Source: Desulfobacterales bacterium
GTDB taxonomy: Bacteria; Desulfobacterota; Desulfobacteria; Desulfobacterales; UBA5852
NCBI GenBank assembly: GCA_963674755.2
Contig: CAXXVS010000002.1
Span: 1,664,001 to 1,728,000 of the forward strand
Length of the DNA stretch: 64,000 bases
Direction: 5' to 3'
Under the pieces are notes generated by a model. The model searched no databases. It was not told the origin of the DNA and saw nothing but the letters and a program-made list of their open reading frames with translations. Below are positions 45,593 through 56,096 of the stretch, in pieces; the first letter of the stretch is position 1, and each line of letters starts with the position of its first letter. A program made the translations under genes and the position numbers.

Positions 45593-46220
45593 GGGCGGTT
45601 GCGTAAAACGCCCAAAATCAAGGCGTGCAAGCTCGGAGAAGTGAGCGCACCCAGGTGCGCCGCAGCAACGAGAAGCGCCGCACAACGCCGATATTTGTCC
45701 GTCCCAGTGGAGCGGTCGTTTTTTGCAGTGGCATGTGTTGCCTATTTATTTCGTGCACAGGGAGGTTGTGTAAAACGCCCAAAATCAAGGCGTGCAAGCT
45801 CGGAGAAGTGAGGCGCACCCAGGTGCGCCGCAGCGACGAGAAGCGCCGCACAACGCCGATATTTGTCCATCCCAGTGGAGCGGTCGTTTTTTGCAGTGGC
45901 ATGTGTTGCCTATTTATTTCGTGCACAGGGAGGTTGTGTAAAACGCCCAAAATCAAGGCGTGCAAGCTCGGAGAAGTGAGGCGCACCCAGGTGCGCCGCA
46001 GCGACGAGGAGCGCCGCACAACGCCGATATTTGTCCGTCCCAGTGGAGCGGTCGTTTTTTGTAGTGGCATGTGTTGCCTATTTATTTCGTGCACAGGGAG
46101 GTTGTGTAAAACGCCCAAAATCAAGGCGTGCAAGCTCGGAGAAGTGAGGCGCACCCAGGTGCGCCGCAGCGACGAGGAGCGCCGCACAACGCCGAGTTTG
46201 GGCGTTTTACACAACCTCCC
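45593..46220 (-). repeat. Tandem array (168-bp period, about 3.7 units) of family A hairpin element
   Basis: GTAAAACGCCCAAAATCAAGGCG at 45603, 45770, 45938 and 46106; last unit has a 24-bp perfect IR ending in the dctM stop. Confidence 0.95.
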
Positions 46221-47521
46221 TAGAACATGGTGTTGGGAAGGTATAGCGCAATCCCCGGAAACGCCACCAAAATCAGCAGACAGGCCAGCATGGCCAGCCA
46301 GAAGGGCCAGATGCCCCGGAAGATCGTCGCAAGGGGAACGTCCGGCGCAACCCCCTTCACCACGAAGACGTTGACCCCCACCGGCGGACTGATGAGCCCC
46401 ATTTCCAGCACGATCACCACGATGACCCCGAACCAGATGGGGCTGTAGCCCAGGGCCAGAATCACCGGGAAGACCACCGGCAGGGTCAGCACCAGCATGG
46501 CGATGCCTTCCAGAAAGGTGCCCAGCACGACGTAGGTGGCCAGAACGATGAGCAGGACCCCCAGGGAGCCCACATCCAGTCCCGTGAGAAAGCCCACCAG
46601 GTTGGATGGAATCTCCGAGAGTGCCATGAAGGGGATGAAGACATGCGCGCCGATCAGGATCATGAAGGTCAGGGCCGTGGTGCGCAGGGTGTGGAGGATG
46701 ACCGCCTTGAAGGCCGCGATGCTCAGGGAGCGCCGGGCCAGGGCCACGATCAAGGTCAGGAAGGCGCCGATGCCGGAGGCCTCCACCGGCGTCATCACGC
46801 CGCCGTAGATGCCGCCGATGGTCACCAGCACGATGGCGATGAAAACCCCCGCCCGGCGCAGGGTCTGCCAGCGTTCCCCCAGAGAGGCCCGGGGGCCGGC
46901 GGGACCGGCCTGGGGCCGCAGGCGGGTGACCACGGCGATGGCCAGCAGGAAGAGCGCGGTCAGCAGAAGGCCGGGCAGGATGCCGGCAATGAAAAGCTTG
47001 CCGATGGACTGCTCGGTCAGGATGGCATAGATGACGAAGCCCGACGAGGGGGGAATCAGGAATCCCAGGGTACCGCCGGCTGCCACACACCCGGTGGCCA
47101 AGCCGTCGTCGTAGTGGAAGCGCCGCATCTCGGGCAGAGCCACGCGTCCCATGGTGACGGCCGATGCAAAGGACGACCCACTCAGGGCGGCAAAGCCGGC
47201 ACAGCCGATGATAGTGGCGCCGGCCAGCCCTCCCCGGTGGTGGCCGGCCCAGGCGTAGGCCGCGTTGTAGAGATCCCGGCTCATGCCGGAAAGGCCGGCC
47301 AGGTTGCCCATCAGCACGAAAAGGGGGATTACGCTCAGTTCGATGTACGAGGCGATCTCAAAGGTTTCCGAGCCCAGGATGGTACAGGCCGCCGGAAAGC
47401 CGCTGATGGCGGCAATGCCGCCAAAACCGGCGATCAGCATGCCCATGGCGATGGGCACCCGGAAGATCAGCAATACGAAAAAGGCCGTCAGCCCCACAGC
47501 GCCGATCAGTTCAGGTGTCAT
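46220..47521 (-). CDS. dctM: TRAP transporter large permease
   Basis: IPLFVLMG, SGSS, GGTLGFLIPPS, ISPPVG. Confidence 0.95.
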   Translation of the reverse strand: MTPELIGAVGLTAFFVLLIFRVPIAMGMLIAGFGGIAAISGFPAACTILGSETFEIASYIELSVIPLFVLMGNLAGLSGMSRDLYNAAYAWAGHHRGGLAGATIIGCAGFAALSGSSFASAVTMGRVALPEMRRFHYDDGLATGCVAAGGTLGFLIPPSSGFVIYAILTEQSIGKLFIAGILPGLLLTALFLLAIAVVTRLRPQAGPAGPRASLGERWQTLRRAGVFIAIVLVTIGGIYGGVMTPVEASGIGAFLTLIVALARRSLSIAAFKAVILHTLRTTALTFMILIGAHVFIPFMALSEIPSNLVGFLTGLDVGSLGVLLIVLATYVVLGTFLEGIAMLVLTLPVVFPVILALGYSPIWFGVIVVIVLEMGLISPPVGVNVFVVKGVAPDVPLATIFRGIWPFWLAMLACLLILVAFPGIALYLPNTMF

Positions 47522-48051
47522 GACCGGACATCATCGGGAGGCTGGTCCAGATCCTGGATGCGGCCCCGCAGAATCAACAGCAATTCAACCACCAATACGG
47601 CGGCATAGAGCAGCATGCCCAAGGCCAGAAAACGGTAGAAAGGGCCATAGGGGATTCCGAGCGCCATCGAGGTTTCCCCGAAAGCGGCCGCATTGGCGCC
47701 GCTGATCCAGAGCTGGCGGGAGAGCACTGCCAGCATGGCCAGGCCGGCCAGGCGCGCCCCGGCTTCGGAGCAGGCGGCCAGGCGCGGTCCCATGCGGCGG
47801 CTGAAAAATTCGATCACCACCTGACCGCCCGTGCGGGCGCTATAGGCCACCGACAGGGCCACCATGACGAGCAGCATCAGCTTGGCCACGTCCCGGGCTC
47901 CGTAGAGCGGCGCATTGAACAGGTAGCGCAGGGTCACGTCCGCCACGGTAAGCCCCATCAACCCCAGGAGCATGGCGCCGCCCCCCCACAGGGCCACCTG
48001 CCGCACCACGAGGTCGACGCCGCCCATCAGCCGCACCGGCAAGGGCGGCAT
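47518..48051 (-). CDS. dctQ: TRAP transporter small permease
   Basis: Four TM segments, DVTLRYLFNAP; lies between dctP and dctM; start uncertain. Confidence 0.88.
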   Translation of the reverse strand: MPPLPVRLMGGVDLVVRQVALWGGGAMLLGLMGLTVADVTLRYLFNAPLYGARDVAKLMLLVMVALSVAYSARTGGQVVIEFFSRRMGPRLAACSEAGARLAGLAMLAVLSRQLWISGANAAAFGETSMALGIPYGPFYRFLALGMLLYAAVLVVELLLILRGRIQDLDQPPDDVRS

Positions 48052-48055
48052 CCCG

Positions 48056-49081
48056 TCAGCGTTTGAAGGCCTGGTAGATTTCCCGGGCATTGATCCCCTC
48101 GGCTTCCAGTTGATCCAGATGCTTGTCGATGGCCTTCTGGGCGGCCGCGGCGAAAGCCTCCCGTTCCTGGGAGGAGAGTTCGGTGTAGCCGAGGCTGCTA
48201 TCGGTCTTGGCCTTCTCCAGGGCGTCGATGTCCTTGCGGCTCCAGATGATGGCAGCCTTGATGCTGAAGTCCCGCCCGGTCAGCCGGTCCAGGGCCGCCT
48301 GCTGGTCGGGCGTAAGACCGGCCCAGCTGCCCTTGTTCATGACCAGGCAGACGATGGAGGTGGGGCTGGGCAGGTTCGTGGTGACGAATTGGGCCGGTTC
48401 GGCCAGGTTCCAGGGCTTGTAAAGGGCGTTGGGCTGGATCAAGACCGCATCCACCACCCCGGTATTGAGCGCATTGTAGGACTCGGTAATGGGCATGGCT
48501 ACCGGAACGGCGCCCCAGGATTGGATCAGATCGGACTCCACCGGCGAGCTGATGCGGATCTTCATGCCCTGCAGATCCGGCACGGTCTGCACGGGCCGCT
48601 CCCGGATCATCAGCACCGTGGGCGACATGACCCAGATGCCCAATACCTTGACCGCGTCGTACTCTTGGGCCAGGTAGGTGTCGTAGATCTCCCACAGCCG
48701 GCGGGTGCCCTGTTCGGCGCTCTGCGTCACCCCCGGCTGGGTGGCGATCAGGGAGCGGGGAAAAAGGGTCGCCGAATAACTCTGGATGCAGAAAGTGATG
48801 TCCGCCACCCCGGTGACGGCCCGTTTGTACTGCTGTACCGGGCCTTTGCCCAGGGCGCCGGAAGGGTAGATCTTGATGGTCAGCGCCCCGTCGGTGGCCG
48901 CCGCCAGGTCCTGGGCCAGGGGCAGGAAGACCTCCTGATGCAGGGTGTGCACCGTGGGCATGAAATGGGCCAGTTTGAGTTCCTTGGCGCCCGCGCCCGC
49001 CGGCCGGCCGGCCAGCAGGACGACCGCGGTCGTCAGCATTACCATGAATTCAGCCAGACATCTGATTCGGTTCTTCATCAT
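48056..49081 (-). CDS. dctP: TRAP transporter solute-binding protein
   Basis: Signal peptide, IYPSGALG, DLQGMKIR, ESYNALNTGVVD. Confidence 0.92.
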   Translation of the reverse strand: MMKNRIRCLAEFMVMLTTAVVLLAGRPAGAGAKELKLAHFMPTVHTLHQEVFLPLAQDLAAATDGALTIKIYPSGALGKGPVQQYKRAVTGVADITFCIQSYSATLFPRSLIATQPGVTQSAEQGTRRLWEIYDTYLAQEYDAVKVLGIWVMSPTVLMIRERPVQTVPDLQGMKIRISSPVESDLIQSWGAVPVAMPITESYNALNTGVVDAVLIQPNALYKPWNLAEPAQFVTTNLPSPTSIVCLVMNKGSWAGLTPDQQAALDRLTGRDFSIKAAIIWSRKDIDALEKAKTDSSLGYTELSSQEREAFAAAAQKAIDKHLDQLEAEGINAREIYQAFKR

Positions 49082-50637
49082 AAGCCCTCTTCTTTTGTTG
49101 GAGTCGCAAAATCACAGTCTCCCTCGTCGATCATCGTTACCAGGTCGTGCAAATCATGGTCCAGACGACGGTCGAAGGCCAGAACCGGCGAGCGTCTGCG
49201 AACGGTTGCGAGCAGACGTCGCCCGCCTTCCGACAGAAGCGCCTCGTCCCGCAGGGCCGCGGCGTTGGACAGGGCGATCAGCTGGGTGGCCAAAACCTGT
49301 TGCAGCAGGCGAGTCGCTTCGGCGGCGTTGAGGGCCGCATTGAGCCCCATGCTCACCTTGTCCTGGTTGTTGACCTCGGTGGGGCGCGACAAAACCGTAT
49401 CCGGGGCTGCCCGCTGGACGGCCAGGGCCGTCAGGGCGCTGCAAGTCAGCTGCAAGGCCTTGAGGCCGCAGCCCTCGTAGGCCACCAGGGTTTCCGGCAG
49501 CCCCGCGTTGAGGCGGGAATCCACCAGCAGGGCATATTGCCGGTCGATCAGATCCGCCACCGAGGCGGCCGTGGTTTTGAGGAGGTCCATGGTGAGCGCC
49601 ACGTGCCCCCCGTAAAAATTGCCGGCGAAAATGGTGTCCTGCCCTTCGGGATCCACGAGGGGGTTGTCGTTGACGCTGTTGAGCTCCCGCTGGAGGACCT
49701 CACTCGTCCAGGTCAGGGCATCCCGGGCGGCGCCCAGCACCTGGGGCGCGCAACGCAGGGAATAGGGGTCCTGGATGATGCGCCCCGCCTCCTTGTGGCT
49801 GTCCATCAGGCGGCTGCCGTCCAGGGCCTGGCGGATGGCCGTCGCGGACGCGATCTGGCCCGGGTGGTGCTTGAGCCGGTGGGCCGTGGGATGGAAGGCC
49901 TGGGAGCGGCCGTAGAGCACCTCCGCCGCCAGGGCGCAGGCCCGTTCGCAGGCCTCCAGGGTGCGCCCGAACCGCTCGGCCGCCAGGATCCCGATGGCGG
50001 TCATCACGGCCGTGCCGTTCATGATGGCCAGGGACTCCTTGGGAACGAAGGTGTGCACCGGCAGACCGGCCTGCCCCAGGGCCTCGTCCGCCGGCATGAT
50101 CATGCCGTCATAATAGACTTCCCGCTCGCCGCACAGCACGGCGGCCAGGTAGGACAAAGGGGTCAGATCCCCCGAGGCACCCACCGATCCCAGGGACGGA
50201 ATGACCGGAATCAGATCGTGGTTGAGCAGGCCGCACAGGGCCTCCAGCAAAATAGGACGCACGGCGGAGTAACCTTTGGCCAGGCTCACCAGACGGGCGA
50301 ACACGATGGCGCGCCCCTCTTGGGCACTGAAAGGCGCCCCCACCCCGCAGCCGTGCTGACGGATGATCTGATAGGCGAATTCCTGGGAGTGCTCCGGCCC
50401 CACGGTACGGCCCGAGCTGTACCCCACGCTGGTGGAAACGCCGTAGATGCGCTCTCCGGCCGAAAGGGATCGCTCCAGAATCGCCCGGCCCCGGTTGAGC
50501 TTGGCCAGCCAGGCGGCATCGCTGGACAGGCGCACCGGGCGGGCGGACAGGGCGACGGCGGTCAACTGCGCAAGGGTGACCGTTTTATCGTCGATCGTCA
50601 GCTCTGATTGGGGTAAGCGATCGTTTTCTCCTGGCAT
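49078..50637 (-). CDS. MIO-dependent aromatic amino acid ammonia-lyase (HAL/PAL/TAL family)
   Basis: IYGVST, GSVGASGDL (ASG MIO triad), KESLAIMNGT, QDPYSLRC, NDNPL, GNFYG, NQDKVSMG. Confidence 0.93.
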   Translation of the reverse strand: MPGENDRLPQSELTIDDKTVTLAQLTAVALSARPVRLSSDAAWLAKLNRGRAILERSLSAGERIYGVSTSVGYSSGRTVGPEHSQEFAYQIIRQHGCGVGAPFSAQEGRAIVFARLVSLAKGYSAVRPILLEALCGLLNHDLIPVIPSLGSVGASGDLTPLSYLAAVLCGEREVYYDGMIMPADEALGQAGLPVHTFVPKESLAIMNGTAVMTAIGILAAERFGRTLEACERACALAAEVLYGRSQAFHPTAHRLKHHPGQIASATAIRQALDGSRLMDSHKEAGRIIQDPYSLRCAPQVLGAARDALTWTSEVLQRELNSVNDNPLVDPEGQDTIFAGNFYGGHVALTMDLLKTTAASVADLIDRQYALLVDSRLNAGLPETLVAYEGCGLKALQLTCSALTALAVQRAAPDTVLSRPTEVNNQDKVSMGLNAALNAAEATRLLQQVLATQLIALSNAAALRDEALLSEGGRRLLATVRRRSPVLAFDRRLDHDLHDLVTMIDEGDCDFATPTKEEGL

Positions 50638-50652
50638 GGCTCGATCCCCTTT

Positions 50653-50862
50653 TTAAGCCTCTGGGCGGATATTGATTCGTTTAGCCATCGATCGCAGGAT
50701 TCGACTCTGCTTCTGGTGCCAAACATAGGCGCTGCGGAACCGGAAAATAAAGTTGCCGCGTTTGCTGCGCATCGCTCTCTGGATCACCCGGCGCCCGGAG
50801 AACGGCTTCTCCCTTCCGCCGGGGATCTCAGCATGCAAATAATCTTTCAGGATAGAAGACAT
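50653..50862 (-). pseudogene. 69-aa fragment resembling the N-terminal helical domain of serine acetyltransferase-like proteins
   Basis: EIPGGREKPFS..RV..R..NFIFRFRSAYVWH..LRSMAKRIN pattern recalled from CysE-like proteins; no hexapeptide repeats follow. Confidence 0.4.
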
Positions 50863-50922
50863 CCAATCGTTGCCCTTTCGACACCCGCCCGGACACCGGG
50901 CAAACCCCGCCGGCCAAGTGCA

Positions 50923-52452
50923 TCACGTCGGCGGCGGCATCAAAGCCGCCTTCAGCTCATTTTTTAAAACCTTGCCCAATCGGTTGCGGGGAAGCGCCTG
51001 CGTCACGAAGCGGATCTTGCGGGGATGCTTGAAGGCCGCAATTTTATCATCCAGGAAGCGCAGCAATTCCTCCTCCTTGAGCGACCGGCTCTCCTCCAGG
51101 CGTATGAAGGCCGCCGCCACCTCCCCGCGTTTGGCATCCGGCAGGCCCACCACGGCGGCTTCCGCCACGTGGGGATGGGCTTCGATGGCGTGCTCCACCT
51201 CGGGGGCATAGATATTCTCTCCGGCACAAATAATCAATTCGCTTTTGCGGCCGGCCACATAGAGGAAGCCTTCCTCGTCGCGCCGGCCCAGGTCGCCGGT
51301 ATGGAACCAGCCGTCCTGCAAGACAGCCGCTGTGGCCTCGGGATTGTTCCAATAGCCCTGAAAAACGGTGGGGCTCTTGACGACAATCTCGCCGATCTCG
51401 CCGGGCGGCACCTCGCCGCCGTCGTCGCTGATCATTTTAAGCGTCGTATGAAAGACTTCCTTGCCGATGGACCCGGCCTTGCGGACGGCATCTTCCAGAT
51501 CCAGGGCCGTTATACGCAGGGTCTCGGTCATGCCGTAGCCCTGGGCGAACTTGACCCCCTTTTCCTCCTGATAGCGGTGGATCAGGGCCACCGGCATGGG
51601 GGCCCCCCCGGCAATGAAAAAGCGCACCGCCGAAAAGTCGGCCGACGGCCAGCGGGGGGCCTTGGTCATCATGTCATACATTACCGGCACGGCAAACATA
51701 TAGGTGATCGGCTCCTGCATGATGCAGGTGATGATGTCCGAAGGATTGTCGAAGCTTTTCAGCACCAACGAACCGCCCGCGTATATCACCGGGGTTGCCG
51801 ATGCCGCCAGGGCCCCGATATGGAAGAGGGGGGCCACGACCAGGGATTTGCAGGTCGCGTCCAATTGATAATTATGCAGGGAATGGATGGCGCCAAAAAG
51901 AAAATTGCCGTGGGTCAGGACAGCTCCCTTGGGGCGGCCGGTGGTGCCGGAGGTGTACATGATCATCAGGGGATCGGCGAGACCCGCCGCCTCACCCGTA
52001 GGAGGCTCCGCCGTCGGCTGGTCCCGGGTCAGCGCCTCCAGCGTCGGATCGCCGCTGCCGGCCGCGCCGTGGGCCAGGTAGTGCATCGGGATACCTGGAT
52101 CGGATTTAACCTTCTGGGCCTTGGCTTCCATATCCGCCGAATAGACCAACGCCCGCGGGCCCGCATCCCCGACGATATGGGCCAGTTCCTCCGCCGTCAG
52201 ATGGGTGTTGACCGGCACGATCAGGGCGCCGATCTTGGCACAGGCAAAAAAGACCTCCAGAAACGCGCTGGAGTTGGCCATCAGGACCACCACCCGTTCG
52301 CCTTTGGTCAGACCGAGGGCCAGCAGGCCATGGGCGGTTCGGTTGACCTGCGCGTTGAAATGCCGGTTGTTTAATTCCAGGTCCTCTTCCTTTAAAAAAA
52401 GGCGGTTTGGATAAAGCAGCGCACGTTTGGTGATCCACTCCCCGATATGCAT
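50923..52452 (-). CDS. Acyl/aryl-CoA ligase (AMP-forming)
   Basis: YTSGTTGRPKG, APLFHIG, QGYGMTE, HTGDLG, LPRNRLGKV. Confidence 0.93.
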   Translation of the reverse strand: MHIGEWITKRALLYPNRLFLKEEDLELNNRHFNAQVNRTAHGLLALGLTKGERVVVLMANSSAFLEVFFACAKIGALIVPVNTHLTAEELAHIVGDAGPRALVYSADMEAKAQKVKSDPGIPMHYLAHGAAGSGDPTLEALTRDQPTAEPPTGEAAGLADPLMIMYTSGTTGRPKGAVLTHGNFLFGAIHSLHNYQLDATCKSLVVAPLFHIGALAASATPVIYAGGSLVLKSFDNPSDIITCIMQEPITYMFAVPVMYDMMTKAPRWPSADFSAVRFFIAGGAPMPVALIHRYQEEKGVKFAQGYGMTETLRITALDLEDAVRKAGSIGKEVFHTTLKMISDDGGEVPPGEIGEIVVKSPTVFQGYWNNPEATAAVLQDGWFHTGDLGRRDEEGFLYVAGRKSELIICAGENIYAPEVEHAIEAHPHVAEAAVVGLPDAKRGEVAAAFIRLEESRSLKEEELLRFLDDKIAAFKHPRKIRFVTQALPRNRLGKVLKNELKAALMPPPT

Positions 52453-52476
52453 GGCAACCTCCTTGCGGCCGGGCGT

Positions 52477-53700
52477 TCACGCCTGTCGTTTCATCAAAAG
52501 GGATACAAAAGTTCCACCCGAAGAAAAGCCGTTCACGAGTCCACAGGTCAGCGGGTGTGCCTGCGGGCGTCCCCGGACAAAGTTCAGCGGCGCCAGGGGC
52601 GTGTCCAGCCCCAGGGTCGGCGGCAGCAAGCCGTCCCTGAGGGAGAGGGCCATGGCGGCCGACCGGACCCCCCCGGACGAAAAGCTTTCCCCGAGAGCGC
52701 CTTTGACGGATCCGATCCGGGGGCCGTCCGGCAATGGGCCGAAAAGACCGGACAGGGCCTCGGCTTCGAGACGATCCAGACGGACGGCGCCATTGGCCGA
52801 AGCGGAGACATAATCCACCTGGCCTGGGGCAAGGCCCGCCCCCTGGAGGGCCCGCTGCATGGCCCGCACGGGCCCCCGTGAATCGTCGGGCCAGTCGGTG
52901 GGCGGTGCCGGCGACGAACTGAGCCCCCACCCGCCGATTTCACAATACGGTGTGGCACCCCGCTGCCGGGCATGGGTCAGGGACTCGAGGCATACGACCC
53001 CGGCACCCTCTCCCACCACAAAACCGTTGCGCCGGCGATCGAAGGGGCGCGCCTCCTCGTCCTCACCTTTCCCCGGCGAGAGGGCCTTGAAATGTGTCAA
53101 AATCTCGAAAAAGAAGGCGGAAAAGATATCGGCCCCGCCGGCCAGCATGACATCGGCCCGCCCGTTCCTGATTTCCGCGGCCGCATAGGCCAGGGCGGTT
53201 TCGGCCGAGGCTTCCCGGTGGTTGACGGTGGCGTTGATGCCCCGGAAGCCGATCTCGATGGCGGCGTGGCCGGCGGGCGCATTCATCACCGTGTTGGGTA
53301 CCAGAATGGGGTTCACCAGACGGGGTCCCTCGGTGAAGAGGGTCTCCATGAACCGGGCGGCCACATCGGTGCTGCCGAATGCCACCCCCAGGATGATCCC
53401 CACCCGATCCCGGTTGGCGGCCGTTATGGTGAGGCCGGCATCCTCCAGGGCCATGCGGGCCGAGGCCGTCGCCATGAGGGAGAGGCGGTCCATGCGCCGC
53501 CGGTTTTTAATGGAAATATGGTCCTTGGGATTGAACCCCTGCGCTTCGGCGCCCAGCCGGGAGGGGAAGCGTGCCGTATCGAAGGCGCTGATCGGCCGGA
53601 TGCCGGAGCGGCCGTCGAAAAGATTCCGGGCAAAGGCCGCCTTGCCGGTGCCCAGAGGCGTTACGACGCCCAGCCCTGTGACCACCACCGGATCAGGCAT
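52477..53700 (-). CDS. Ketosynthase-like chain-length factor (catalytic residues absent)
   Basis: Thiolase fold; catalytic Cys position reads NHREASA, His positions read SASANG and GESFSS. Confidence 0.88.
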   Translation of the reverse strand: MPDPVVVTGLGVVTPLGTGKAAFARNLFDGRSGIRPISAFDTARFPSRLGAEAQGFNPKDHISIKNRRRMDRLSLMATASARMALEDAGLTITAANRDRVGIILGVAFGSTDVAARFMETLFTEGPRLVNPILVPNTVMNAPAGHAAIEIGFRGINATVNHREASAETALAYAAAEIRNGRADVMLAGGADIFSAFFFEILTHFKALSPGKGEDEEARPFDRRRNGFVVGEGAGVVCLESLTHARQRGATPYCEIGGWGLSSSPAPPTDWPDDSRGPVRAMQRALQGAGLAPGQVDYVSASANGAVRLDRLEAEALSGLFGPLPDGPRIGSVKGALGESFSSGGVRSAAMALSLRDGLLPPTLGLDTPLAPLNFVRGRPQAHPLTCGLVNGFSSGGTFVSLLMKRQA

Positions 53701-54940
53701 GGTCCCGGTTCTCCGTCCGGTAACGCCCGATGACGACCGAGGTGTTGTTGCCCCCGAAGGCAAAGGAGTTGGACAACACAATAGCGAGCTCTGTCCGGCG
53801 CGCGCCTTCGGTCACGTAGTCGAGGTCGCAATCCGGATCGGGGGTCGTGAGATGAATCGTGGGCGGTATGAAGCCCCCCGTGATGGCCAGCACCGCGGCG
53901 ACCGCCTCGATGGCCCCGGCCGCGCCCAGGGTGTGGCCGGTCATGGATTTGGTGGAGCTCACGGGAATCGCATAGGCCCGCTCGCCGAAAACCTGTTTGA
54001 TCCCGACGGTCTCCATCCGGTCGTTGGCCGGGGTGGCGGTACCGTGGGCGTTGATGTAATCGACCCGGGACGGCGCGACACCGGCATCTTCCAGGGCCGC
54101 CCGCATGCAACGCACAGCCCCGGAGGCTTCGTGATCAGGGGCGGTCATGTGGTTGGCATCGCAGCTGATGCCGTAGCCCAACAATTCGCCGTGGATCCGG
54201 GCCCCCCGGGCCAGGGCATGCGCTAAAGATTCCAGGACCATCATACCGGCCCCCTCCCCCAGGGACATGCCCGCCCGGTGGCGGTCAAAGGGTTTGCAGT
54301 AGTGCGGGTCCACCGCCTTCAGGGCGTTGAAGGCGGCATAGGTGGTGCGGGCCAGGGGTTCGGCGCCGCCGGCAATCATCACCCGGGCCTGCCCGTCCCT
54401 TATCAGGTCCCGGGCATAGCCCAGCGCCGTGGCCCCGGAGGAACAGGCCGTCATGAAAGTGGTTTTCGGCCCCCCCAGGTTGAGTTTGGAGACGATATGA
54501 TCGGCGGATGAGGCGCAGCAAAACGCCGAAAAAGCGGAGAACCGCACCGCCGCGGCCTTGCCCTGCAGATGCCGGCGGAAAGCGGCCTCGCCTTCCAGCA
54601 TGCCACCGGCCCCGCCGCCCACGGCAACCCCGGTCTCCTCCCGCAAATCCCCGGGGAGAGGAAGGAGACCGGCATCCTGCAAGGCTTCCAGGGCCGCCGC
54701 CATGGCCATGACATCCGAACGGGACATACGTTTGCCGTAAAGGGCTTCGGGAATGGTCTCGTGGGGTGAAAAATCCCGGATCTCGCCGCCCGTGCGGGTC
54801 GGAAACCCTGTGGTATCAAACACCGTGATCGGACCGATGCCGCAGCGCCCCGCCTGCAGAGCGGCTGCAAAAGCGGGCGCCGTGCGGGCGACGGCATTGA
54901 CGGTTCCCAGCCCTGTGATGACAACACGCCTGCTTTCCAT
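53693..54940 (-). CDS. Beta-ketoacyl-ACP synthase (FabF-like / type II PKS KS)
   Basis: TACSSG, AHGTAT, GHTLGAAG, SNSFAFGG. Confidence 0.95.
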   Translation of the reverse strand: MESRRVVITGLGTVNAVARTAPAFAAALQAGRCGIGPITVFDTTGFPTRTGGEIRDFSPHETIPEALYGKRMSRSDVMAMAAALEALQDAGLLPLPGDLREETGVAVGGGAGGMLEGEAAFRRHLQGKAAAVRFSAFSAFCCASSADHIVSKLNLGGPKTTFMTACSSGATALGYARDLIRDGQARVMIAGGAEPLARTTYAAFNALKAVDPHYCKPFDRHRAGMSLGEGAGMMVLESLAHALARGARIHGELLGYGISCDANHMTAPDHEASGAVRCMRAALEDAGVAPSRVDYINAHGTATPANDRMETVGIKQVFGERAYAIPVSSTKSMTGHTLGAAGAIEAVAAVLAITGGFIPPTIHLTTPDPDCDLDYVTEGARRTELAIVLSNSFAFGGNNTSVVIGRYRTENRDHA

Positions 54941-55286
54941 CGCTGCAGCGCCTTCCGCCTTCGATTTCGGTTGTGTTGTGGGTACGGCGGCATATGCCGG
55001 CCAGAGAAGCAACTGAAAGGGCCTCCGGGCCGCTTCCGGATGGCGGCGCCATCTCCCCGGCCGGGATGTCCGGTTGGAACTAACAAGTGGTCATGAAGGT
55101 GTCAAGCAGGGAAGCTGGTCATGCCTGTCTTTACAGGAATTGATAACGGTCGCGCGATAAGGCTGGTCGCCACGATGCCCATTGAAACAAGTTGACAACG
55201 CAAGGCCCCAAGACATAGGATTGACAGGTCATTGCGATGACCAGCCGACATTCCTTTCCGAACAACCTGTTTGACAGGATCTCCCC

Positions 55287-55709
55287 ATGCACGATCTGGA
55301 CATCGACACCCTCGTACCCCATCGCCGCCCTATGCGGTTGGTCGACGAAATCCTGGCTGTCGACGAGCATTCCGCCACCACCACCGCTACCGTGACGCCG
55401 GCTTGGCCGTCCTTCGCCGCCGGGGCGGTCAGCGCCCTGCTCACGATCGAGCTCGTCGCCCAGACGGCCGCCGTGATCGGCGGCTACAAAGCCCTCAGCG
55501 CGCCTTCCCCTACCAAAGTCCGCACGGGCATGCTGGTGGGCATCAAACAGGCCGATTTCCGGGTGGACGTCCTGCCGGCCGGAACCCGCCTCGTAATCCG
55601 GGCCACAACCCATCCCATTCTTGAAAATTTCAAAGAAATCAAAGGCGTTGTTGAAATTGACGACCGGATCGTCTGCGAGATGATCCTGCAGGGCGTCCAG
55701 TCCGCATGA
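55287..55709 (+). CDS. Hotdog-fold 3-hydroxyacyl-ACP dehydratase (ApeP-like)
   Basis: VPHRRPMRLVD, IELVAQT, GMLVGI. Confidence 0.82.
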   Translation: MHDLDIDTLVPHRRPMRLVDEILAVDEHSATTTATVTPAWPSFAAGAVSALLTIELVAQTAAVIGGYKALSAPSPTKVRTGMLVGIKQADFRVDVLPAGTRLVIRATTHPILENFKEIKGVVEIDDRIVCEMILQGVQSA

Positions 55710-55763: not shown

Positions 55764-55781
55764 GTGTGCATATTCTGACAC
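55764..55781. promoter_or_regulatory. Candidate EBP enhancer site
   Basis: GTGTGCATATTCTGACAC imperfect palindrome about 110-125 bp upstream of the sigma54 promoter, followed by an AT-rich IHF-like tract. Confidence 0.4.
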
Positions 55782-55888
55782 CCCGCGTCAACGATTCTGC
55801 CACCATCATCCCCTGCCCCAGCACCAGCGCTGACGCTAAAATTCTATATCTAATTGTTATCATTATAAATATTGATTTTTATAAAAAA

Positions 55889-55904
55889 TGGCACATAGTT
55901 TGCT
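55889..55904 (+). promoter_or_regulatory. Sigma54 (-24/-12) promoter
   Basis: TGGCAC-ATAGT-TTGCT, exact consensus. Confidence 0.9.
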
Positions 55905-55914
55905 AAAATCTCAT

Positions 55915-55970
55915 GCAGACCATCTTTTCTCCCTCCTCTTAGGGGCAAGGCATAGGGCCTTGCCCCTTTT
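55915..55970 (+). ncRNA. Candidate sigma54-dependent small RNA (~56 nt) with anti-SD seed
   Basis: Promoter, then CCATCTTTTCTCCCTCCTCT, then terminator AGGGGCAAGGC-ATAGG-GCCTTGCCCCTTTT; no credible ORF. Confidence 0.72.
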
Positions 55971-55976
55971 ACTTTG

Positions 55977-56096
55977 GACGGCGTCGTAAAAGGCTCAATA
56001 TCAGCGTTGTGCTTCATCGGCGTTGTGCTTCATTTCTCGTCAGGCCTCCTCATCGAAATTCGCTCGCCTTGATCTTGAGCCTTTTACGACGCCCTC
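55977..56096 (+). repeat. Family A hairpin element, copy 5
   Basis: GGCGTCGTAAAAGGCTCAA / TTGAGCCTTTTACGACGCC perfect IR; ATATCAGCGTTG and CGCCTTGATC motifs; internal duplication of GCGTTGTGCTTCAT. Confidence 0.88.

Follow-up and report, generated by a model that had tools for sequence, protein, structure and literature searches.

A predicted sigma-54-dependent small RNA gene with a conserved anti-ribosome-binding-site seed in a Desulfobacterales bacterium

The locus described here lies in a 64,000-nucleotide stretch of DNA (hereafter the window) from the genome of a Desulfobacterales bacterium (G000). The genome contains dsrA, scoring above the family cut-off, and the host is thus likely a sulfate reducer. 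On the forward strand of the window, a FabZ/ApeP-like dehydratase gene is followed by an enhancer-like region, an IHF-like site, a sigma-54 promoter, and a predicted small RNA ending in an intrinsic terminator (Table 1). Window positions 46220-55709 include a minus-strand gene cluster that diverges from this dehydratase gene and comprises two FabF-like synthases, an AMP-binding ligase, a lyase acting on aromatic amino acids, and a TRAP transporter; together they likely specify a specialised acyl/aryl lipid pathway. In G008, the RNA sits between a FabZ-like gene and fabF, all on one strand. Directly 3' of the terminator in the window is an inverted repeat with 18-bp arms (55979-56096; z -5.55), of which about five divergent copies occur in the genome; a related element occupies the same place in G005.

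Table 1. Coordinates of the features discussed; positions are those of the window unless a contig is named
Feature	Position	Strand	Basis or remark
FabZ/ApeP-like dehydratase gene	55287..55709	+	Pfam ApeP-like; NCBIfam FabZ below cut-off; outside the RNA
Upstream half of tandem enhancer-like region (GTG..TGACA)	55764..55780	+	Conserved block in 7/7 aligned genomes
Predicted activator-binding palindrome, CGTCA-N7-TG(A/C)CA	55786..55802	+	9/10 copies
IHF-like site within AT-rich tract	55847..55859	+	Position kept in 8/10 copies
Sigma-54 -24/-12 promoter	55889..55904	+	TGGCAC and TTGCT invariant, spacer variable (7/7 genomes aligned)
Predicted small RNA, ~57 nt	55915..55971	+	Promoter spacing plus terminator, fold; both ends predicted
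Single-stranded pyrimidine seed CATCTTTTCTCCCTCCTCT, 19 nt	55921..55939	+	Identical in 10/10 copies; predicted unpaired
Intrinsic terminator	55941..55975	+	GGGGCAAGGC stem, ATAGG loop, U-rich tail; hairpin common to paralogue family
Stand-alone tetraheme cytochrome c3 gene	G000:C1:620672-621169		Predicted target
Long paralogue L324	G000:C2:~1807205-1807350	+	Directly 3' of activator gene
Long paralogue L321	G000:C2:~906145-906292	-	Sigma-54 box, CU tract, same hairpin

An earlier note on this DNA had proposed an exact TGGCAC-N5-TTGCT promoter and, about 25 nt after the predicted RNA start, a strong terminator, the two delimiting an RNA of about 56 nt; at the level of sequence, all three proposals held. 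TGGCAC (55889-55894) and TTGCT (55900-55904) are separated by a 5-nt spacer, and TGGCAC-N5-TTGCW occurs once across the window, where 0.08 occurrences are expected by chance. With the RNA start placed at ~55915 by what we take to be the sigma-54 consensus spacing, terminator onset follows after 26 nt; sequence conservation of the RNA region sets in at ~55917 in the alignment of seven genomes. The terminator hairpin comprises 11 bp (8 of them G-C), a 5-nt loop, and a TTTTACTTT tail. In the 6.7-Mb genome, 2 of 49 strict sigma-54 boxes have a terminator within 130 nt on their 3' side. The predicted fold of 55915-55973 (-22.9 kcal/mol, z -2.8) leaves the 5'-most 26 nt unpaired, and the computed energy cost of opening the seed is 0.43 kcal/mol. 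The seed consists of an anti-AUG, an 8-nt pyrimidine spacer, and an anti-Shine-Dalgarno (anti-SD); the SD-to-AUG spacing of 8 that it implies is normal in this genome (130 of 1081 GGAGG genes; mode 5). RNA runs X1-X4, in the form of assembled contigs only, had a flat depth of 2-3 over promoter DNA and RNA alike. Judged by its sequence, the locus is a self-contained, conserved RNA gene with its own sigma-54 promoter and terminator.

Seven of the genus's 13 genomes and three metagenome contigs contained the unit of promoter, seed, and terminator. A DNA search of 61 genomes returned full-length copies from 6 of the genus's other 12 members and from no other genome, and a covariance model run against 151 genomes likewise returned no full-length orthologue beyond the genus, its weak matches being other family members or noise. 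In the alignment, no change occurs in either promoter box, in the 19-nt seed, or in the terminator stem, and the intervening bases drift; the 16-17 nt from the -12 box to the CAT of the seed are mostly variable. Carrier genomes are kin and do not count as independent samples. The metagenome scan specified promoter and hairpin only, not the seed, and yielded at least 120 loci; among those listed, four had the full hairpin, three being the short RNA with an identical seed and one a paralogue. A seed match on a viral contig, with neither promoter nor hairpin in the stretch read, was taken as chance.

Seed conservation, the absence of which had been named beforehand as telling against a small RNA, was thus found in all ten copies, and the claim of an unpaired anti-SD plus anti-AUG seed is upheld by the predicted fold. 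The complement of the seed is a strong ribosome-binding site (RBS), an 8-nt spacer, and an ATG, and the minus-strand reading frame that starts there is, as the earlier note had it, six codons long (MVCMRF). Translation of this peptide might have explained the motif. Over the ten copies, the minus-strand frame measures 2, 2, 2, 4, 6, 6, 14, 20, 21, and 21 codons, with unrelated sequences, and we regard a peptide origin of the motif as scarcely credible.

Upstream of the promoter, a candidate enhancer and an IHF-like tract had also been proposed, and the positions of both are kept in orthologues. Relative to the -24 box, nine of ten copies have the palindrome at -101 to -105; the tenth copy has TGTCA-N7-TGACA. 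In eight of ten copies, an IHF-like site at -42 to -44 relative to the box matches 7-8 of 9 positions of the IHF consensus as we assume it to be. The N7 spacing of the palindrome agrees with sites of the DVU0110/DVUA0057 type in D. vulgaris; a flagellar activator site of the DVU2894 type was rejected, its spacing being N6. Because the genome encodes 67 activator-like proteins, we assigned none of them to the palindrome. Elsewhere in the genome, sigma-54 promoters with TGTAA-N7-TGACA-like upstream sites that match the DVU0110/DVUA0057-type motif occur at G000:C2:405803, 409004, and 417401 and at C3:947187 and 598306, mostly 5' of signalling-protein genes.

The promoter region bears on a different origin for the RNA, in which the locus mainly represents the 3' end of the FabZ/ApeP-like mRNA with its terminator, the small RNA is a processed piece of its 3'-UTR, and the sigma-54 elements are secondary. 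The FabZ/ApeP-like gene is the constant upstream neighbour of the RNA in the aligned genomes and in locus L203; in every carrier examined it lies 230 nt away on the same strand with no terminator-like site between, and gene and RNA were both not found in G002, G006, G007, G009, and G011 (75-95% complete). An RNA of Campylobacter jejuni, CJnc230, arises in this way (PMC11187230). Processing from this mRNA is nevertheless improbable here: promoter boxes, enhancer-like palindrome, and IHF-like site hold fixed distances while the DNA between them drifts, and paralogues with the same hairpin adjoin unrelated genes, most with a sigma-54 box of their own.

The pattern search for orthologues and paralogues that the earlier note had proposed was productive on both counts, and it placed the RNA in a family that had been beyond that note's view. 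Paralogues with one common hairpin form a lineage-wide family, of which this RNA is the shortest and thus minimal member. This GGGGCAAGGC hairpin occurred in 13 of 17 family genomes at 1-5 copies each, the reversed control in one genome. Over 24 paralogue and orthologue rows, which were hand-chosen, CU-rich, and selected by a palindromic pattern that inflates pairing, 240 of 240 cells (100%) are paired, 4 of the 10 pairs have changes on both sides (0 of 500 shuffles reach as many), and the other six never vary. The covariation score at the true register (0.154) equals that at a slide of +3 (0.157). A REP-like repeat was rejected as the origin of the hairpin, there being four genomic copies only.

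Paralogues retain the sigma-54 box and CU tract and differ in their 5' part. The long-hairpin type (6 of 25 pairs compensatory over 10 rows) has two copies in this genome, L324 and L321, both with a conserved 5' stem (GGCAATC..GATTGCC) with compensatory changes. Both also carry tandem TGACA-N5-YGKCA sites upstream, and neither has an Rfam match. The sister clade (G002, G009, G011) has a shorter type, and G014 and G016 have tandem copies with no sigma-54 box nearby. Activator genes immediately precede one paralogue in this genome and one related RNA in G017. Two further sigma-54 units, L322 (G000:C2:~931300-931452, minus strand) and L283 (G008), have the 5' stem and upstream sites of the long type, followed by an RBS and a reading frame and no hairpin, so that the stem domain may have a role as a cis-acting leader as well. 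Another family member, L012/L326 (G014:C6:~369375-369414), has the identical terminator and, instead of a sigma-54 box, what we presume to be a sigma-28-like promoter.

A sigma-54 box followed by a CU tract was matched in 85 of 401 genomes of the order, as compared with three control matches. A terminator lay 3' of the pattern in 31 of 43 order loci (30 listed by the pattern search and 13 hand-picked to cover other seed types), as compared with 2 of 63 boxes in this genome. CAT, which was absent from the search pattern, stood 5-9 nt 5' of CCTCC in 19 of the 30 order loci; these come from some four lineages only, and ten of them have the CAT inside a predicted stem. At the level of the phylum, 33 of 401 genomes matched and a terminator was present in only 7 of 30 loci, which does not support a phylum-wide class.

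Several other candidate RNAs were noted during these searches. In this genome, L307 (G000:C3:503817, minus strand) is a candidate for a further short RNA under sigma-54, which carries GGTTTCCTCCTT, ends in a different terminator, and is kept in G003 (L289), and L323 (G000:C1:646072, minus strand) combines a sigma-54 box, a CCTCCT tract, and a strong hairpin, with a PAS-domain activator gene directly upstream. A very conserved sigma-54 RNA of ~80 nt was found in three families of the order (L362-L371, L467, L468) and at L343 and L345-L348; it is built of a GGAATGAAG hairpin, a CU-rich loop, a CACCTCC linker, and a terminator, and in one family it adjoins genes that we take to be flagellar hook-associated. 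In Acidobacteriota (L026, L029, L032, L049, L061, L096, and ~25 further loci), a sigma-54 promoter precedes a 5' leader with a CATCTCTTTCTCCCTCC tract, predicted to pair with the RBS of the same transcript and thus a cis version of nearly the same seed; the gene 3' of it encodes a Lys/Pro-rich, signal-peptide-like protein of 65-67 amino acids with no Pfam match.

An RNA of this kind need not act on mRNAs. It could be real and sigma-54 driven and yet mainly bind a protein (a KH-domain protein or ribosomal protein S1) or sponge another RNA, with CU tract and hairpin as the binding site. Consistent with such a role, the sequence of the hairpin, not just its shape, is kept across paralogues (6 of 10 pairs invariant), a CAUAGGG-like loop appears again in RNAs of other families, the statistics of target prediction are modest (below), and tblastn found 4-5 proteins in this genome that presumably belong to the KhpA family, one of them encoded behind a sigma-54 box. 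We consider protein binding or sponging unlikely, since an anti-AUG at normal distance from an anti-SD recurs across lineages, and since a search of the genome for CsrA was negative and GGA repeats are absent from the RNA. Nor was Hfq found in any of the 17 family genomes, in a search that gave a signal in 5 of 14 controls; this, too, the earlier note had not foreseen.

Targets of the seed were predicted over 5442 genes called by a simple purpose-written script, and some gene starts are therefore wrong. Among seed duplexes at 5438 gene starts, the 20th-best surpassed 35 of 35 shuffles (CCTCC held fixed) and the 5th-best 34 of 35; the single best was matched by 2 of 35 and is thus unexceptional. 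Every start window contains an ATG, which favours any CAU-bearing seed. No predicted gene start held a perfect complement of the seed, the matches to tuf and cytochrome c3 (c3) being imperfect too, and counts of the wobble-complement pattern in carriers were near control. Poly-G runs at G000:C3:~1790600-1791360 and C3:~2118680, probably assembly artefacts, swamp purine-pattern searches.

Seven top predicted targets were checked in relatives, and only the sites in tuf and c3 were kept. The top energy match, nuoCD (-35.2), yielded a close orthologue in only G004 and G001 of the six other carriers, and its site is not kept; a response-regulator/formate-nitrite-transporter fusion, a zinc-ribbon protein, an ArgT-like protein, and potC were not conserved either. 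Translation of sixteen pattern matches from other carriers gave tuf as the sole shared orthologue. After correction of the top 250 for accessibility, the two tuf copies ranked 2 and 5 and c3 ranked 4. The best-conserved predicted targets are thus both copies of tuf (EF-Tu) and the stand-alone tetraheme cytochrome c3 gene, with modest statistical support.

Both tuf copies pair with the seed in register at 17 of 19 positions, the two best scores among the 5442 predicted genes. The site is unchanged in 6 of 7 carriers (tuf was not found in G008) and is the same in G002 and G011, genomes without this RNA; 16 of 56 permutations of the spacer equal the true spacer in pairing with tuf. The c3 protein has four CxxCH motifs, and its relatives include cytochromes c3 of solved structure. 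In all seven carriers its site pairs with the seed of the same genome, at energies between -22.6 and -30.8 kcal/mol, and the pairing reaches into codon 2. With the seed of this genome, 0 and 2 of 2000 shuffles equalled the carrier mean at c3; with own seeds, 7 of 1000 (G005, G008) and 56 of 1000 (G001, G003, G010) did so, as compared with 35 of 1000 for tuf, all from related genomes, with candidates chosen after ranking, and the own-seed and tuf values uncorrected. Carrier c3 sites gave -27.5 to -32.9 and those of the sister clade -19.3 to -19.9, a contrast that is gone with the AGAAC seed variant (sister clade -23.6 to -24.2; carriers -21.7 to -23.4, with G003 at -27.2). Takeover of the c3 site by the sister-clade paralogue was rejected, 81 of 1000 shuffles equalling it.

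The seed might instead serve one dedicated target, tuf or c3, and be invariant as the mirror of that partner. In this genome, GGAGG followed by 8 purines and ATG occurs in three predicted genes only, two of them tuf, and the second codon of c3 (GUC/UUC) would account for the invariant GA that adjoins the anti-AUG on its 5' side. That neither match is perfect, and that neither the tuf nor the c3 site covaries with the seed within carriers, makes a single partner quite improbable; nor did the tuf RBS covary in any apparent way with the seeds of other families. Related seeds in another family match several start regions in a number of genomes, among them those of HU and of an amino-acid binding protein. 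These matches are consistent with a broad anti-RBS role; they are also expected of strong RBSs.

How the RNA relates to known systems was judged from Rfam and from the literature. The Rfam search that the earlier note had proposed gave no match in the window at gathering score; the nearest family was suhB/MmgR (RF00519), at 21.9 bits against a cut-off of 41 (E 0.037). From 20 related loci only a tRNA and a Methylobacterium suhB passed, and a further 20 gave sub-threshold matches only. That Methylobacterium suhB/MmgR copy (L075:1522-1604; 45.1 bits) lies directly behind a sigma-54 box.

RNAs of the alpha-r8 group (SuhB/MmgR/SisA-D) resemble the RNA described here in being short and in presenting a U/C-rich, single-stranded anti-SD just 5' of a Rho-independent terminator. 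Sibling copies are under different promoters (PMC12559287), and SuhB represses thnR at the RBS by blocking its SD (10.64898/2025.12.09.693200). The defining internal 10-mer of the group, UUUCCUCCCU (PMC12559287), is not reproduced here: the core reads UUUUCUCCCU, with 9 of 10 positions in agreement, in all ten copies. The weak 5' hairpin of alpha-r8 is absent, the corresponding model positions being deleted in the alignment and the 5' 26 nt unpaired. Furthermore, alpha-r8 RNAs are alphaproteobacterial, usually FGase-adjacent, and Hfq-associated, in contrast to the dsrA-bearing host, FabZ-like neighbour, and Hfq count of 0 of 17 here.

The Qrr sRNAs of Vibrio are primary sigma-54 transcripts driven by enhancer-binding proteins (PMC10162802) and turn activation into post-transcriptional repression (PMC2680268). 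The likeness at this locus is one of sequence features, a sigma-54 promoter with upstream activator sites; the Qrr Rfam model had no match at gathering score nor at E up to 10. A Qrr RNA is longer and structured and depends on Hfq, whereas the RNA here is one seed plus a terminator. CJnc230 (FlmE) is RpoN-dependent and covers RBS and start codon with a single-stranded anti-SD, but is processed from flgE mRNA and is ~98 nt long with two stem-loops (PMC11187230), in contrast to the dedicated promoter and predicted 57-nt primary RNA here. The rhizobial AbcR1/2 and NfeR1 silence many mRNAs at the RBS by anti-SD motifs (PMC8844928); they differ in length (114-121 nt), in having several hairpins and short 8-nt motifs, and, for AbcR1/2, in binding Hfq, and the table of PMC7143759 gives no RpoN promoter for them.

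In D. vulgaris Hildenborough, four sigma-54-dependent ncRNAs are under dedicated activators, two lie just downstream of the activator gene, and the function of one, Dv_sRNA2, is given as unknown (PMC4641369, PMC3333781). Activator-adjacent placement is common to these ncRNAs and the paralogues here; their listed activator sites, on a comparison of promoter and activator-site sequences, differ from CGTCA-N7-TGACA. According to its preprint, DseA is the first sRNA to which a role in Desulfovibrio has been assigned (10.1101/803072). Titles and opening lines of abstracts, covering few subscription journals, gave no description of this RNA or its family; a listing in an sRNA catalogue is possible. 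On this search, the RNA gene is uncatalogued. Its seed design is like that of alpha-r8/SuhB, AbcR1/2, and CJnc230, and its regulatory logic like that of Qrr; it is a member of none of those tested. With a predicted promoter and terminator of its own and a conserved anti-SD seed predicted to be unpaired, it has the attributes of an anti-SD sRNA gene.

The earlier note had read the RNA as a repressor acting in trans. Conservation supports the gene anatomy, the elements of sigma-54 control, and a seed that combines anti-SD with anti-AUG; repression in trans is our inference. Our preferred reading, which we hold to be probable, is a trans-acting and probably Hfq-independent repressor: a sigma-54 RNA whose long seed blocks translation initiation on several mRNAs. 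The proposed order of events is as follows: an enhancer-binding protein would bind the CGTCA-N7-TGACA sites, IHF would bend the promoter DNA, and sigma-54 polymerase would make an RNA of 55-57 nt. The long seed would then pair, without Hfq, with purine-rich start regions, covering them from the Shine-Dalgarno to the AUG inclusive, and would exclude ribosomes; an activating signal would thereby be turned into repression.

Riboregulation in sulfate reducers is little studied, and this RNA, with promoter, enhancer, seed, and two candidate targets, offers a compact model of possible sRNA action without Hfq. It also points to a class that roughly one in five of the order's sampled genomes contains. 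It is conceivable, though doubtful, that the Hfq-less sulfate reducers of this order run a whole layer of sigma-54 anti-RBS RNAs in which a single module, CU seed plus hairpin, is used again and again with interchangeable enhancers and 5' domains; the minimal member described here would then let one sensory activator directly lower EF-Tu and periplasmic cytochrome c3 and so couple translation capacity to respiration. If tuf and cytochrome c3 are true targets, one signal would link the growth machinery with electron transfer.
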